Below, piece by piece: positions 21,026 through 37,466 of a stretch of 64,000 nt of DNA. A program made the position numbers and the translations under genes. Positions within the stretch are counted from its first letter, which is position 1, and each line of letters opens with the position of its first letter. The stretch is taken from positions 853-64,852 of the forward strand of contig JAKAJU010000072.1 of the NCBI GenBank assembly GCA_021813655.1, written 5' to 3'. The notes under the pieces were generated by a model, which saw only the letters and a list, made by a program, of their open reading frames with translations, was not told the DNA's origin and searched no databases. The stretch is from Chloroflexota bacterium. Lineage in GTDB: Bacteria > Chloroflexota > Limnocylindria > Limnocylindrales > CSP1-4.

Positions 21026-21081
21026 TTGACACGGGGCGGGGCCCGGCGTAGCCTCTAAGTTGTAGGACGACCTGTCGTCTG
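21026..21081 (+). promoter_or_regulatory. lsrF-like promoter (TTGACA 21026-21031, 17-nt spacer, TAGCCT 21049-21054) followed at about +1 by the motif GTTGTAGGACGACCTGTCGTCTG (21059-21081)
   Basis: Read directly. The same 23-nt motif recurs at 32446..32471. Confidence 0.5.
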
Positions 21082-21183
21082 CTGTCCTCACCAACCCAGG
21101 GAGAGGCCGGCGTCACGAACAGGCCGAGGCATTCCCGCCGTCCCGGTCCGGGCGGCGCCCGCGACGCGGAAAGGATCCGTCCG

Positions 21184-22083
21184 ATGCCCGACGCAGACGA
21201 CGCGCTGCAGGCCAGGTACTACCACCACGATGTCCCTCAGAGGAATGCCGCGTTCTACCTGAAGGGTTCTGGCGCGTACGACTGGGGCATGCAGAACCGC
21301 CTCGCCCGGACGTTCCGTCCCTCGACGGGCCGCACCGTCATGCTCGCGATCGACCACGGGTACTTCCTGGGCCCGACCACCGGCCTCGAACGCGTCGACG
21401 TGGACATCGTTCCGCTCCTGCCGTACGTCGACGCGCTCTTCTGCACGCGCGGGATCCTGCGGTCAGTCATCCCGGCCGCCCCGGCCGTCCCCGTCGTTCT
21501 CCGCGCGAGCGGCGGCCCGAGCATCCTCCGCGAGCTCTCGGACGAGGAGATCGCGGTCGACGTGGAGGACGCGCTCCGCCTGAACACATGCGGCGTCGGG
21601 GTCCAGGTCTTCATCGGCGGCCCGAACGAGACGAAGTCCGTCCACAACATGACGCGACTGGTGGACGCCGGCCTGCGGTACGGGCTGCCCGTCCTCGGCG
21701 TCACGGCGGTCGGCAAGGACATGGTCCGCGACGCGCGGTACTTCCGGCTCGCGACGCGGATCGCGGCCGAGCTCGGCGCACAGGTGGTGAAGACCTACTA
21801 CGTGCCGGATGGCTTCGAGACCGTCACCGCCTCGTGCCCTGTGCCCATCGTCATGGCCGGCGGCAAGAAGCTGCCCGAGCTCGACGCGCTCACGATGGCG
21901 TACCGGGCCATCCAGGAGGGAGCCTCCGGCGTCGACATGGGCCGGAACATCTTCCAGAGCGACGCGCCGCTCGCGATGCTCCAGGCGATCGCGAAGGTCG
22001 TCCACGAGGACATGCCTCCGGCCCAGGCGCTCGAGCTCTTCGAGACGCTCCGCCACGAGTCCGCCGCGTCGGTCCCGGCCTGA
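21184..22083 (+). CDS. lsrF: LsrF-like class I aldolase/thiolase (DeoC/FbaB family; 3-hydroxy-5-phosphonooxypentane-2,4-dione thiolase homolog)
   Basis: Collinear strong similarity to E. coli LsrF from memory: [33 protein letters not shown]...[18 protein letters not shown]...VVKTYYV...PIVMAGGKK. Confidence 0.85.
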
Positions 22084-22091
22084 CCGAGCCA

Positions 22092-22819
22092 TGGCAGCCG
22101 ATGCCACGCTCGCGCGCCTCCTCGCGAGCGCGCCCCAGCTGTCCGTCGGGATCCTCACCGCGGATCTCGGCCACCTCGACGACGAGCTCCGGCGCCTCGA
22201 GCACGCCGGCGTGGCCATGATTCACACCGACGTCATGGACGGCGTCTTCTGCCCGATGCTCTCGGTCGGGGCGCCTTTCGTCGCGGCGCAGCGGACGGCG
22301 ATGCTCAAGGACGTCCATCTCATGGTCGACGAGCCGCTCGAGAAGATCGGGCCGTTCGTCAAGGCGGGCGCCGACATGATCACGTTCGCCGTGGAGTCGG
22401 CGTCCAACCCGCACCGCGTCCTACGGGTGCTCGGCGATGCGGCGAACGCGAACGATCCGGCGCGTGGGATCCTCCGCGGCATCGCCGTGAGCCCGGGCAC
22501 GCCCCTCGAGGTGGTGGCGCCGCTCGTCGACGAGCTCGAGTACGTGATGCTCCTCGGGATCGATCCGGGCTGGGGCGGCCAGGCGTTCGCGCCGGGCATG
22601 GCCGCCCGCGTCGCGCGGGTCCGCGAGCTCATCGCGGCGTCGGGCCGGTCCGTCCTCCTCGGGATCGACGGCGGCGTCACGAAGGCGAACGTCGCGGAGG
22701 TCGCGGGACTCGGGCCGGACGTCGTCGTGACGGGCAGCGCCATCTTCGACGGGACGGCCGACGTGGAGTCGAACGCCCGAATGATGCGGTCTCGGCTGGT
22801 GGCGTCCGCCGCGAGTTGA
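22092..22819 (+). CDS. ribulose-phosphate 3-epimerase family protein (LsrE-like)
   Basis: Rpe fold motifs (HTDVMDGVFCP, HLMVDEP, GIDPGWGGQAF, GIDGGV). Confidence 0.85.
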
Positions 22820-35434: not shown

Positions 35435-36453
35435 AGCGAGTCGCTCCGCTCGGCGGAGGCGGAGGCGGAGGGGGTCACCGGCGCGTCGTCGACGAGATCG
35501 ACCGCGTCGATCCCGAGGGGCTCGCCGAGCAGCCGCTCCACTCCGCGGACGATCCCGATCGCGTCGAGCCCGTACTCCCGGGCGAGATGCTCCCGGCTCG
35601 CCCCGTGCGCGTACGTGTCCCGGAGCCCGATACGAACGAGCCGCTTCCCGAGGCCGGCCTCGGCGATCCGCTCCGCGACCGCGGACCCGAGGCCGCCGAC
35701 GATCGTGTGGTTCTCGGCCGTGACGATGCCGGCACGGGCACCGGCGAGCGTCGCGAGGATCTCGGGGTCGTCGAACGGCTTGTGCGTGGAGACGTGGAGG
35801 TGCCGGACGCCCACACCGCGCCGCGCGAGCGTTCGTACGGCGCGCATCCCCTCCTCCGTCTCGATGCCCGACGTGATGAGCGCGACGTCCGATCCCTCCG
35901 CGACGACACGGACGCGATCGAGACGCATGGGGTCGGTCCGCGGGAAGAGCCGGGGCACGACGCCACGGAGCATGCGGACGTAGACGGGTCCGTCGACGGC
36001 CTGGGCGACGTCGAGGACGCTCTCGACCTCCGTGGCGTCGCCGGTCTCGAGGACCGTCATGTTCGGCGTCGCGCGGAGGATGGCGACGTCCTCGATGGCC
36101 TGGTGCGTGACGCCGCCCGGCGTGAGGATCCCCGGCAGGAACCCGATCATGCGGACGCGCAGGTTCGGGTACGCGACGGACATCGCGAGCTGGTCGTACG
36201 CGCGACGGTAGATGAACACCGCGAACGTGTGGATGTACGGCGTGTAGCCCTCGCGCGCGAGGCCGGCGGCGAAGCCGAGCATGTTCTGCTCGGCCATCCC
36301 CATCGAGAAGAAGCGGTCCGGGTACGCGTCGCGCCAGCGGCCGACCTCGGAGGAGTTCGTGAGGTCAGCGGACAGCACGACGACCTCGGGCTTGTCGCGT
36401 GCCCAGTCGATGAAGTTCTGGACGTGGGGTCGGACGACCATCTCGATGCTCAT
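35431..36453 (-). CDS. transketolase, C-terminal subunit (pyrimidine-binding plus C-terminal domains)
   Basis: MSIEMVVRPHVQNFIDWARDKPEVVVLSADL...MGMAEQNMLGFAAGLA. RBS AGGAGG precedes it. ATGA overlap with the N-terminal subunit. Confidence 0.85.
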   Translation of the reverse strand: MSIEMVVRPHVQNFIDWARDKPEVVVLSADLTNSSEVGRWRDAYPDRFFSMGMAEQNMLGFAAGLAREGYTPYIHTFAVFIYRRAYDQLAMSVAYPNLRVRMIGFLPGILTPGGVTHQAIEDVAILRATPNMTVLETGDATEVESVLDVAQAVDGPVYVRMLRGVVPRLFPRTDPMRLDRVRVVAEGSDVALITSGIETEEGMRAVRTLARRGVGVRHLHVSTHKPFDDPEILATLAGARAGIVTAENHTIVGGLGSAVAERIAEAGLGKRLVRIGLRDTYAHGASREHLAREYGLDAIGIVRGVERLLGEPLGIDAVDLVDDAPVTPSASASAERSDSL

Positions 36454-37379
36454 CGCAGCTCCACCTCCTGCGCCATCGCCTCGTAGGCGGCCTGGTACCG
36501 GGCGCGCTCGTCCGGGGAGACGAACCGGAGCGTGTGGATGAGCGGCGCCTTCTCGGCGAGGAGCGGGACGCCGCGGGTGGGGTCTGTCCGGGCGAGAACG
36601 ACGTGCGGCCTGTCGCTCGGCCGTCGCATTGCAGCGTCGAGCGCGTCGAGGTCGTGGCCGTCCACCTCGTCGCAGGATGCGCCGAACGCCCGGATGCGAT
36701 CGGCGAGCGGTTCGAGGTTCCCGACGGCGGATACGAGGCCGTCGCACTGCTGGCCGTTCGCGTCGACGACGACACGCAGGTTCGCGAGCCCGTGGAAGGC
36801 GGCGTTGGCGAGCGCCTCCCACGTCTGGCCTTCTTCGAACTCGCCGTCCGACATCATGACCCAGACCAGCCCGGCCTCTCCGCGGAGCCGCCGGGCGAGC
36901 GCGATGCCCGCGGCCTGCGACAGCGCCTGCGCGAGCGAGCCGGTCGTGGATTCGATGCCGGGCGAGTGCTCGGCGCCGATCATCTCGACCGTCCCGCCGT
37001 CGCGGTTGAAGTCGTCGAGCCCGTCCGGCGCGAGCCGCCCCACCTCGATGAGCGTCGCGTAGAGCGCGAGCGCGTACTGGGCCGGCGAGAAGATGAAGCG
37101 ATCGAGGTCGGGGGCCGTGGGACCGTGGTAGATGGCACCCGTGAGGTACCCGGGTGTCCGCGGTCCGGGCACGCCCACGAACGGTCCGGGCCGGATCGGC
37201 GCTCGCAGCGGGGCGAGCCGAAGCGTCCGCGTGTAGAGCATCGCGAGCATCTCGGCGGCGGAGCAGGCCTGCGACACGTATCCCTCGCCGTTGCGGAGGA
37301 CATGCTCGAACACTCGCCGGCGGATGCCCGCCGCGACGGCACGGGTGTCGGCCTGCCAGGTGGCGGATCGATCGGCCAT
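36450..37379 (-). CDS. transketolase, N-terminal subunit (TPP-binding)
   Basis: GEGYVSQACSAAEMLAMLY...GHSPGIESTTGSLAQALSQAAG...MSDGEFEEGQTWEA. Confidence 0.85.
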   Translation of the reverse strand: MADRSATWQADTRAVAAGIRRRVFEHVLRNGEGYVSQACSAAEMLAMLYTRTLRLAPLRAPIRPGPFVGVPGPRTPGYLTGAIYHGPTAPDLDRFIFSPAQYALALYATLIEVGRLAPDGLDDFNRDGGTVEMIGAEHSPGIESTTGSLAQALSQAAGIALARRLRGEAGLVWVMMSDGEFEEGQTWEALANAAFHGLANLRVVVDANGQQCDGLVSAVGNLEPLADRIRAFGASCDEVDGHDLDALDAAMRRPSDRPHVVLARTDPTRGVPLLAEKAPLIHTLRFVSPDERARYQAAYEAMAQEVELR

Positions 37380-37422
37380 GTCGCGATTCACCTCGGGTCA
37401 CAGCGCGGGTGTCCGAGCGGGT

Positions 37423-37466
37423 GCATACTGCACATCCGTGCAGGCCCGCACGGATGTGCAGTATGC
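37423..37466. promoter_or_regulatory. 44-bp dyad: 19-bp perfect arms GCATACTGCACATCCGTGC / GCACGGATGTGCAGTATGC around an AGGCCC spacer, about 45 bp upstream of the tkt-RLP operon
   Basis: Read directly. No U-tract follows. Positioned as an operator or 5'-UTR structure. Confidence 0.5.

Follow-up and report, generated by a model that had tools for sequence, protein, structure and literature searches.

A conserved gene cluster of Limnocylindrales predicted to salvage 5-substituted riboses, with a RuBisCO-like protein, a transketolase-like pair and an LsrF homolog

The 64,000-nucleotide stretch of contig JAKAJU010000072.1 from a Limnocylindrales bacterium of the phylum Chloroflexota (assembly GCA_021813655.1; the whole stretch is hereinafter the window) contains 15 genes for a form IV RuBisCO-like protein (RLP), a split transketolase-like pair (TktN and TktC), an MtnK-type kinase, an MtnA-type isomerase, class II aldolases, an ATP-binding cassette (ABC) importer, an LsrF-like thiolase, an Rpe-like protein, a small SnoaL-like protein and two regulators. 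The locus is probably responsible for the substrate-inducible uptake and salvage of 5-substituted riboses that derive from S-adenosylmethionine (SAM) chemistry; judging from the sequences, the main substrate is probably 5-methylthioribose (MTR), with 5-deoxyribose (5dR) as a likely second one. The host is a soil or freshwater bacterium, and the gene cluster is conserved and co-regulated. The best reading of the gene complement is that the dihydroxyacetone phosphate (DHAP) shunt is combined here with an undescribed branch that would consist of LsrF, the transketolase-like pair and the RLP; the reactions downstream of the RLP are inferred. The novelty would thus lie in the salvage of a SAM by-product by known enzyme families in an undescribed combination; no description of a system combining an RLP with a split transketolase or with LsrF was found in the literature, although an earlier mention of the genome context may exist. 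A pathway of this kind had been proposed in a preliminary description of this DNA and has withstood computational attempts at refutation, in an amended form that has two operators instead of one, favors MTR, includes a non-canonical thiamine diphosphate (ThDP) enzyme and limits the link to rpe to a single lineage.

The uptake and activation genes point to the substrate. The kinase, a member of the APH family, passes the NCBI equivalog cut-off for MtnK (TIGR01767, 372 bits vs 275) and is similar to the MTR kinases of Arabidopsis and Bacillus subtilis (2PYW and 2OLC, 224 and 211 bits, respectively); the isomerase passes the cut-off for MtnA (TIGR00512, 392 bits vs 279). The transporter had been labeled ribose-type, a label to be corrected in that its substrate-binding protein (SBP) is closest not to RbsB from Escherichia coli (about 54 bits) but to 4RY8 (196 bits, the best match among PDB sequences), an entry titled [quoted passage not shown]. 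A Foldseek search started with an AlphaFold2 model of the SBP, built from a 46-sequence alignment with a confidence (pLDDT) of 86 (only 44 for a single-sequence model), again identifies 4RY8 as the top match, with 36% identity, a root-mean-square deviation of 1.4 Å, a target-normalised TM-score of 0.93 and E = 1e-28. The scores of the SBP against the LsrB and RhaS models are 28 bits (cut-off 384) and 47 bits (cut-off 342), respectively. Given that DrdK uses MTR and 5dR equally well (PMC6079011), both sugars are plausible substrates of the predicted system, methylthioribose being the better supported of the two.

Among solved structures, the RLP shows the highest similarity to 3QFW, RLP1 from Rhodopseudomonas palustris (276 bits, 41% identity over 352 aligned positions), followed by MtnW proteins (150-181 bits) and the RLPs of Chlorobium (135 bits) and Burkholderia (86 bits). 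RLP1 belongs to the DeepYkr clade and is a 5-methylthioribulose-1-phosphate 1,3-isomerase that yields 1-methylthio-xylulose-5-phosphate and 1-methylthio-ribulose-5-phosphate in the ratio of 3:1 (PMC5893883). The window protein has in common with RLP1 the K-D-D-H motif, which is K-D-D-E in MtnW, as well as the ALKPxGL, HPA and GGRF motifs. It is not a bona fide RuBisCO, given the substitutions of KPM for KPK and KDDH for KDDE and the score of 131 bits against the form III model (cut-off 497); a complete carboxylase active site presumably includes Lys177 and Glu204 (spinach numbering). The protein also fails both MtnW equivalogs (NF007095, 232 bits vs 409; TIGR03332, 176 bits vs 514), and an MtnW identity was rejected on these scores. 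Membership in the apiose/tetronate clade, named in the preliminary description as a possible outcome that would speak against the pathway, is likewise discarded: the score against the apiose OiaX model NF042437 is 88 bits vs 700, the nearest characterised protein is RLP1, and the kinase in the cluster is MtnK of the APH family rather than the DUF1537 protein expected for such pathways. The family is large: a search of the protein collection at E <= 1e-10 gives 3,131 homologs, and the species-representative genome set contains 472 confirmed relatives; the RLP encoded in the metagenome-assembled genome GCA_027347925.1 is 99% identical to that of the window.

The 80 best loci among these 472 relatives were examined by tblastn with all 15 window proteins, and 62 of them include enough upstream sequence to be informative (loci and metagenome contigs are designated here by L numbers). 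These loci come from Chloroflexota (Limnocylindrales, with 70-83% identity, and Chloroflexus), Acidimicrobiia, acI Actinobacteria, Planctomycetota, Chromatiaceae, Bacillota and Myxococcota. In 54 of the 62 informative loci, from at least six phyla, the RLP gene is closely preceded, in the same orientation, by the genes for the split transketolase-like pair; tktC directly precedes the RLP gene in 51 of these loci, and a single gene intervenes in three more. The co-conservation of the split transketolase with the RLP, which the preliminary description had singled out, is thus tight. No cupin was detected among the recurrent clusters of RLP-flanking open reading frames (ORFs) scanned with Pfam; the direct upstream neighbors are tktC and tktN. 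Of the other components, mtnA and mtnK are both present in 34 of the 80 loci, sorC also in 34, and lsrF in 18.

The gene orders differ between lineages. In one Limnocylindrales genome with a 72%-identical RLP, the whole layout of the window is repeated, including lsrF-rpe-gntR next to snoaL and mtnK. In Acidimicrobiia, a single operon consists of lsrF, a gene for a muconolactone-isomerase-like protein, mtnK, mtnA, tktN, tktC and the RLP gene behind an operator described below (Operator A), with the fused aldolase/dehydrogenase and the transporter upstream and sorC and an RbsD/FucU gene downstream. The acI order is mtnA, fused enzyme, ABC genes, mtnK, snoaL, tktN, tktC, RLP, with gntR nearby. 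A gene for an ArAE/FUSC-type exporter lies directly downstream of the RLP gene in acI loci L071, L076 and L077 and may export an acidic end product. In other phyla, tktN-tktC-RLP stand alone among housekeeping genes, and two planctomycetal loci add a link to methionine that we count in favor of the proposed function: in L047, tktN-tktC-RLP directly follow a gene for a metX-metW fusion after a gap of 60 nt, and in L039 such a fusion precedes tktN, although here tktN and tktC-RLP are not contiguous but have other ORFs between them.

Together, TktN and TktC carry three transketolase domains, yet they fail every transketolase and 1-deoxyxylulose-5-phosphate (DXP) synthase (DXS) model (the best scores are 151 bits, with NF004559, and 199 bits, vs 488). 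The designation “transketolase” used in the preliminary description should therefore be understood as a statement on the fold only. Alignment of 62 TktN and 68 TktC orthologs with E. coli TktA (TktN was also compared with the split transketolase 6YAK) shows that, in E. coli numbering, the ThDP motif GDG...N, Glu411, Arg358, Ser385, His473 and Arg520 are kept across the family, while His26 is replaced by Tyr, His461 by Phe or Leu, and Asp469 by Gly; TktN additionally carries a family-specific insertion of about 27 residues. His26, His461 and Asp469 are conserved in canonical transketolases, and the residue roles taken here follow the transketolase literature. The TktN of the window itself has Gln (SPAQY) at about residue 103, the equivalent of E. 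coli His66, vs His (SPAHY) in the rest of the family. TktN and TktC do not constitute a standard transketolase; they probably form a catalytically active ThDP enzyme with a phosphorylated substrate.

The LsrF-like protein passes the respective equivalog cut-off (NF006081, 484 bits vs 297) and matches E. coli LsrF (3GKF) over the full length with 393 bits; “VKTYY” aligns with “IKTYY”, so that the KTYY motif, which we take to hold the Schiff-base lysine, is kept. Its association with the RLP, also anticipated in the preliminary description, is borne out by co-operonic genes in Acidimicrobiia and by adjacency in Limnocylindrales. The Rpe-like protein encoded next falls below both cut-offs for authentic Rpe (TIGR01163, 174 bits vs 212.6; NF004076, 153 vs 165) and is a paralog. 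It follows lsrF in L083, L098, L100, L103 and L104, and its gene was found within 10 kb of the RLP gene in none of the 80 loci, a test that is partly blind given that even in the window the two genes are over 10 kb apart. The link between rpe and the RLP holds only in the Limnocylindrales lineage; elsewhere rpe travels as part of an lsrF-rpe pair. A 75%-identical lsrF-rpe pair is encoded in L104 and L105 (6180-11652) within an Lsr-like operon, together with SorC, a 2-hydroxyacid dehydrogenase and an FGGY kinase; given this second, true Lsr-like context, lsrF-rpe looks like a mobile, reusable two-gene module. Two small proteins might assist LsrF. Loci of acI and Limnocylindrales keep the SnoaL gene in a constant place, with mtnK on one side and tktN or gntR on the other; its product is, by analogy, a candidate keto-enol isomerase comparable to LsrG. 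In L008 and other Acidimicrobiia (about 5460-5750), a 94-residue protein whose nearest solved relatives are muconolactone isomerase and 5-chloromuconolactone dehalogenase is encoded between lsrF and mtnK, a position analogous to that of SnoaL.

The two gene strings of the cluster share a 23-nt element, designated Operator B. The exact element, GTTGTAGGACGACNNGTCGTCTG, that is, GTTGTAGGACGAC-CT-GTCGTCTG with the palindromic core GGACGAC-NN-GTCGTC, is located at 21059-21081 of the plus strand; the second copy, GTTGTAGGACGAC-TG-GTCGTCTT, differs from the first by one mismatch and is located at 32449-32471 of the minus strand. The repetition noted in the preliminary description is hence real, with the coordinates of the mtnA-side copy corrected from 32446-32471. 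No further match with up to three mismatches is present in the window, and 100 shuffles that preserved the dinucleotide content gave none, so that the number expected by chance is 0. The two copies are oriented alike with respect to the gene that follows and begin 4 nt past the -10 hexamer of a promoter-like site (Table 1), and the second one ends 23 nt ahead of the mtnA start. Apart from the promoter of the mtnA operon, the scanner finds no promoter-like site in 20900-37900 (shuffle mean 0.3). The element is kept at the same two promoters in orthologous loci, as the preliminary description would predict: upstream of mtnA in genome loci L001-L004 and metagenome contigs L084, L093, L094, L096 and L101, and upstream of lsrF in metagenome contigs L083, L085, L086, L095, L098 and L100, each of the latter with a TTGACA-N17/18-TA...T context. 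In these 4 genome loci and 11 metagenome contigs, the element lies 4-5 nt past the -10 hexamer of the mtnA or lsrF promoter. The metagenome motif scan gave 21 matches in total; 11 have the TTGACA-N17/18 context upstream of mtnA or lsrF, and the other 10, without promoter context and in unrelated, often low-GC sequence, were taken as chance matches.

A different site, Operator A, overlaps the extended -10 element that precedes tktN in the window. Loci L001-L004 and L006 have it at the corresponding place before tktN, and it occurs in about 15 Acidimicrobiia loci, which contain sorC and no gntR, upstream of lsrF and near sorC. The gntR gene is convergent with rpe in the window and in L084, L098, L100 and L103; L084 retains Operator B and gntR, and the 2.4 kb that this contig covers upstream of mtnA contain no sorC. 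Accordingly, the earlier suggestion that SorC or GntR binds one shared motif is to be replaced by two operators with two regulators, the GntR protein being the likely one for the 23-nt motif while SorC tracks Operator A. An Rfam scan of 19000-40500 at E up to 1 produced nothing relevant, only two chance eukaryotic-type matches, and explains neither operator.

The cluster encodes two class II aldolase domains, one free and one fused. The best PDB match of the free aldolase is 6BTD/6BTG (130 bits), with FucA entries at 104 bits or less and a weak match to MtnB (69 bits vs the cut-off of 137). The 6BTD/6BTG structure is that of Bacillus thuringiensis DrdA, the 5-deoxyribulose-1-phosphate aldolase (PMC6079011). 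Clustered as it is with the kinase and the isomerase, the free aldolase is a candidate 5-deoxyribulose-1-phosphate/methylthioribulose-1-phosphate aldolase. It is found only in Limnocylindrales (4 of the 80 genome loci and 3 metagenome contigs). The fused enzyme scores just below the cut-off of the RhaD-aldolase/alcohol dehydrogenase (ADH) model TIGR02632 (549 bits vs 568), and its short-chain dehydrogenase/reductase (SDR) half is nearest to 3-hydroxybutyrate dehydrogenases. It is present in 32 of the 80 loci and always paired with mtnA, so its ketose-1-phosphate substrate is probably the product of MtnA.

These findings can be assembled into a scheme in which the import, MtnK and MtnA steps follow from family membership and every step after MtnA is our inference. 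The MTR-type ABC importer would bring in the sugar, MtnK would phosphorylate it at C1, and MtnA would convert the phosphate into a 5-substituted ribulose-1-phosphate. From here, one route (a) would be the DHAP shunt, in which the DrdA-like aldolase, probably together with the aldolase half of the fused enzyme, would cleave the ketose into DHAP and a C2 aldehyde, which the SDR half would then oxidise or reduce. In a second route (b), the RLP, like RLP1, would shift the carbonyl and produce 1-methylthio-xylulose-5-phosphate and 1-methylthio-ribulose-5-phosphate (or the 1-deoxy forms); the Rpe-like epimerase would interconvert these two C3 epimers, and the ThDP-dependent TktN/TktC would cleave the xylulose form at C2-C3 into glyceraldehyde-3-phosphate and a C2 fragment. 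Given that a methylthio group beside the ThDP enamine is a good leaving group, our favored guess is phosphoketolase-like chemistry, with methanethiol lost from the enamine and an acetyl unit left behind; such a step would replace the glutathione-dependent cupin of Rhodospirillum. In a third route (c), LsrF would cleave 3-hydroxy-2,4-pentanedione-5-phosphate into DHAP and acetyl-CoA. The LsrF substrate could arise through loss of methanethiol from the 1-methylthio-pentulose-5-phosphate enediolate by elimination via the conjugate base (E1cB), giving phosphorylated 4,5-dihydroxy-2,3-pentanedione (phospho-DPD), followed by a keto-enol shift catalyzed by SnoaL or the muconolactone-isomerase-like protein; alternatively, it could come from oxidation of 5-deoxyribulose-1-phosphate or DXP by the SDR. 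Two repressors would exert control: the GntR/UTRA protein would bind the 23-nt operator and so govern the promoters of mtnA and lsrF, and SorC would bind the tandem TGCAC-N4-GTGCA operator at the tktN promoter. Any one specific version of the downstream mechanism is doubtful.

Several observations weigh against this interpretation. The RLP family has KPM where RLP1 has KPQ and a 6-residue insertion with a conserved Gly-Ile-x-His, for which reason it is treated as a sister clade to the DeepYkr (RLP1) clade; outside the RLP1 subclade and only 41% identical to RLP1, the protein could catalyze a different reaction. TktN and TktC are divergent, lack the equivalents of His26 and Asp469 and fail the model cut-offs; what they are proposed to act on and to form is guesswork. 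The scheme also contains three apparently redundant routes and offers no reason for this redundancy. Both regulator assignments, the GntR/UTRA protein as the one that probably binds Operator B and SorC as the one that probably binds Operator A, come from co-occurrence; no Operator-B-like site was found in the acI loci with a 50%-identical gntR, which leaves the former assignment without a cross-check in a second phylum. The RbsD/FucU mutarotase that adjoins sorC in Acidimicrobiia (about 12150-12630) would be unneeded as a pyranase for a 5-substituted ribose, although it could have a role as an anomerase. In acI loci L068, L076 and L079, mtnA, the fused enzyme and the RLP gene are adjacent, with no tkt gene within 10 kb. 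Finally, L084 (1-7516) carries a reduced cluster of rpe, gntR, a snoaL remnant, the fused aldolase/SDR and mtnA with Operator B; no ABC transporter, mtnK, sorC, tkt or RLP gene was detected nearby on this contig, and lsrF would lie past its end. A cyclopropane-fatty-acid synthase gene and a DUF1365 gene flank the L084 cluster. The tkt-less acI loci and L084 hint that lsrF may be independent of the RLP.

Among the rival explanations, the simplest is an ordinary DHAP shunt (kinase, isomerase and DrdA-like aldolase) with a transporter, the RLP, the transketolase-like pair and lsrF-rpe being neighbors that serve an unrelated pathway. The trio and the sugar transporter indeed match a published type of 5-deoxyribose cluster (PMC6079011), and the isolated tktN-tktC-RLP groups among housekeeping genes in many phyla are compatible with such a separation. 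However, in Acidimicrobiia, Chloroflexus and acI, none of which has a DrdA-like aldolase, mtnK and mtnA belong to one operon with tktN-tktC-RLP, whereas the free aldolase is confined to Limnocylindrales; furthermore, lsrF has Operator B in common with mtnA, the RLP operon of Acidimicrobiia places lsrF behind Operator A, and the closest characterised relative of the RLP acts on the MtnA product, which together make this explanation improbable. A change of substrate, to autoinducer-2 (AI-2; an Lsr-like system), a 6-deoxyhexose such as rhamnose, or apiose, appears quite improbable as well. It would draw on the LsrF equivalog, the Rpe paralog, the SorC regulator and the ribose-family ABC importer, all reminiscent of the lsr operon (LsrR is a SorC-family protein), and on the near-threshold RhaD-aldolase/ADH score of the fused enzyme. 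Yet the cluster contains neither an FGGY (LsrK) kinase nor an ABM-family LsrG, and a true Lsr-like context with FGGY is seen at L104; the SBP is far below the LsrB and RhaS cut-offs and has an MTR-binding protein as its best match; there is no rhamnose isomerase, rhamnulokinase or mutarotase in the cluster; the score against the apiose RLP model is low; and MtnK and MtnA pass their own equivalog cut-offs. An Lsr operon for AI-2 was rejected as an identity for the cluster, in which LsrK, LsrG and an LsrB-type SBP are missing.

Classical methionine salvage of the Bacillus type, with the aldolase-like protein as the MtnB dehydratase and the RLP as MtnW, the 2,3-diketo-5-methylthiopentyl-1-phosphate enolase, might be suggested by the fact that the best NCBIfam matches of the RLP are the two MtnW models and that the aldolase does match MtnB, albeit weakly. 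Both MtnW scores are far under the cut-offs, however, the RLP is nearer to RLP1 than to any solved MtnW and has KDDH rather than KDDE, the aldolase is nearest to DrdA and reaches about half of the MtnB cut-off, and genes for MtnX, MtnC and MtnD are absent from the cluster and from the 80 related loci; this explanation is highly improbable. Equally hard to sustain is the notion that the 23-nt element is a transcribed RNA element, such as a leader hairpin or a riboswitch fragment, rather than a protein operator. The element is located just downstream of the -10 hexamer, hence probably transcribed, and holds an inverted repeat, but the arms are only 2 nt apart, which is a poor geometry for a hairpin and typical of a site for a dimeric repressor. 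No Rfam family of relevance covers it within the scanned region; in L002 and L003, the right arm changes from GTCGTC to TTCGTCC without a compensating change in the left arm; and the flanking mtnA and lsrF leaders are otherwise unrelated. The salvage of 5-substituted riboses through the combined DHAP and RLP branches remains the preferred reading.

The genes themselves were called in the window, which has about 72% G+C, by third-position GC and start-codon context and then scanned against Pfam and NCBIfam (Table 1). All 15 genes of the preliminary description are present with the stated domains and in the stated order. Its claim that genes overlap at every junction applies to six junctions: five 4-nt ATGA/GTGA overlaps (tktN/tktC, tktC/RLP, RLP/SorC, SorC/aldolase and mtnA/fused enzyme) and a 1-nt overlap of the ATPase and permease genes; the remaining minus-strand junctions are gaps of 43-116 nt. 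On the plus strand, lsrF and rpe are separated by 7 nt.

Table 1. Genes, promoter-like sites and Operator A of the cluster, in window coordinates (bits are domain or family scores)
Feature	Positions	Strand	Description
Promoter-like site, lsrF-rpe operon	21026-21054	plus	TTGACA-17-TAGCCT, read directly; -10 too weak for the consensus scanner
lsrF-like	21184-22083	plus	3-hydroxy-5-phosphonooxypentane-2,4-dione thiolase ortholog; NF006081
rpe-like (LsrE-like paralog)	22091-22819	plus	PF00834, 156 bits
GntR/HutC-type regulator with UTRA domain	22867-23676	minus	PF00392 + PF07702; start codon uncertain, 23616-23676
SnoaL/NTF2-like small protein	23778-24137	minus	PF12680, 74 bits
mtnK	24181-25407	minus	MtnK/DrdK-type 5-methylthioribose (5-deoxyribose) kinase; TIGR01767
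ABC permease	25480-26529	minus	BPD_transp_2, PF02653, 142 bits
ABC ATPase	26529-28034	minus	PF00005, two ABC_tran domains
SBP	28110-29255	minus	Substrate-binding protein, 5-methylthioribose-binding type
Fused class II aldolase/SDR	29370-31385	minus	RhaEW-like architecture; PF00596 + PF00106/PF13561
mtnA	31382-32425	minus	MtnA/DrdI-type 5-methylthioribose-1-phosphate isomerase; TIGR00512
Sigma-70-type promoter, mtnA operon	32476-32505	minus	TTGACA-18-CATAGT
Free class II aldolase, DrdA-like	32542-33240	minus	PF00596, 157 bits
SorC/DeoR-type regulator	33237-34253	minus	Helix-turn-helix + sugar-binding domain; PF04198, 139 bits
RLP	34250-35434	minus	Form IV RuBisCO-like protein; PF00016
tktC	35431-36453	minus	Transketolase-like C-terminal subunit, pyrimidine-binding + C-terminal domains; PF02779 + PF02780
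tktN	36450-37391	minus	Transketolase-like N-terminal subunit, ThDP-binding; PF00456, 62 bits
Operator A	37423-37466	unstranded	Two TGCAC-N4-GTGCA boxes, inverted repeat with 22-nt arms, overlaps the TGGCATACT extended -10 upstream of tktN

Two intergenic regions of the cluster contain hairpins. The one between the SBP and ATPase genes (28063-28100) is a perfect, GC-rich 16-bp hairpin (100% complementary inverted repeat, 6-nt loop) that may be an mRNA-stability or attenuation element favoring SBP expression; the one between the convergent rpe-like gene and gntR (22826-22859), of 13 bp, has the look of a bidirectional terminator but no T tract. Directly upstream of tktN (37772-43443), there are sulfur and iron genes, namely those for a pyridine-nucleotide disulfide oxidoreductase, a DsrE-like protein, an ArsR-rhodanese fusion (39473-40168), a class V aminotransferase and FeoAB, of which the calls for the ArsR-rhodanese fusion, the aminotransferase and FeoAB were taken from the near-identical contig L102. 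These genes were considered as members of the pathway and set aside, given that they are not conserved beside the cluster in L003. Elsewhere in the window, a tungsten-type aldehyde:ferredoxin oxidoreductase, a protein of the phosphoenolpyruvate (PEP)-mutase/isocitrate-lyase family and a second sugar ABC system (786-2741, 5487-6536, 49216-52922) are encoded, unrelated to the cluster.

The broader interest of the locus stems from the RLP clade to which it belongs. To our knowledge, most form IV RLPs have no assigned function, and the hosts of this clade include the abundant freshwater acI Actinobacteria, soil Chloroflexota, Acidimicrobiia, Planctomycetota and purple sulfur bacteria. That the RLP has an atypical ThDP enzyme as a fixed partner, in the company of MtnK, MtnA, LsrF and an importer of the MTR type, hints at a third manner of disposing of SAM by-products. 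One specific and, in our estimate, unlikely form of it would be a widespread, glutathione-independent recovery of both sulfur and carbon from the methylthioadenosine (MTA)-derived sugar, in which the RLP would yield 1-methylthio-pentulose-5-phosphate and TktN/TktC would expel methanethiol in a phosphoketolase-like manner, leaving an acetyl unit, with a parallel branch in some lineages that would proceed from phospho-DPD (phosphorylated AI-2) via a small isomerase and LsrF to DHAP and acetyl-CoA. If true, AI-2 degradation chemistry would become a stage within methionine salvage, and a function could be assigned to a large orphan RLP clade. A third manner of disposal as such, if real, could explain the role of LsrF and LsrE homologs apart from quorum sensing, how bacteria without glutathione free methanethiol from MTA and, given that streamlined freshwater bacteria may need reduced sulfur, how they scavenge it from sugars excreted by their neighbors. 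The two clean candidate operator-repressor pairs of the locus provide experimental handles.

Comparison with the known systems brings out both the parentage of the parts and the distinctness of the combination. Classical methionine salvage differs in having MtnW, MtnX and MtnD, the genes for which are absent from the locus. The bifunctional rhamnulose-1-phosphate aldolase/lactaldehyde dehydrogenase RhaEW has the same two-domain architecture as the fused enzyme, which comes close to the respective threshold, but the cluster lacks the rhamnose isomerase, kinase and mutarotase, and the fused enzyme is always accompanied by mtnA. The resemblance to the Lsr system (LsrACDB, LsrK, LsrG, LsrF, LsrE and LsrR) consists in a regulator of the SorC family, an ABC importer of the ribose family and an LsrF ortholog with an Rpe paralog encoded next to it, presumably the same arrangement as that of lsrF and lsrE in the lsr operon of Salmonella. 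Unlike that system, for which LsrK, LsrG and LsrB are the defining parts, the locus has no LsrK (FGGY) or LsrG (ABM), its kinase is MtnK, which acts on C1, its SBP is of the MTR rather than the LsrB type, and its lsrF is regulated together with mtnA.

The DHAP shunt, or 5-deoxyribose salvage (DrdK-DrdI-DrdA; MtnK/P-MtnA-Ald2), can be recognized in the locus, with a kinase and an isomerase that match the MtnK and MtnA models, a DrdA-like aldolase and a transporter in the cluster; several published drd clusters also include a sugar transporter (PMC6079011). The differences are that the DrdA-like gene is a Limnocylindrales feature and that, elsewhere, mtnK and mtnA are partners of the RLP, the transketolase-like pair, the fused aldolase/SDR and lsrF, none of which belongs to the published shunt. 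Up to the RLP, there is also a parallel with the MTA-isoprenoid shunt of Rhodospirillum rubrum and R. palustris (MtnP, MtnA, the DeepYkr RLP and a cupin methylsulfurylase), in which an MtnA-type isomerase is likewise followed by an RLP1-like RLP; moreover, the window RLP is encoded beside a DHAP-shunt aldolase, as in R. palustris. Coexistence of the DHAP shunt with the RLP shunt has been described in Rhodopseudomonas (PMC5893883). The window differs in that the place next to the RLP is occupied not by a cupin methylsulfurylase, the enzyme characteristic of the isoprenoid shunt, but, in more than 80% of the loci, by the split, ThDP-dependent transketolase-like pair. The host phyla of the RLP clade are mostly not known to make glutathione. 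The entry into the proposed pathway is import followed by MtnK, rather than MtnP, and the RLP is treated as a member of a sister clade, set apart by the KPM motif and the Gly-Ile-x-His insertion.

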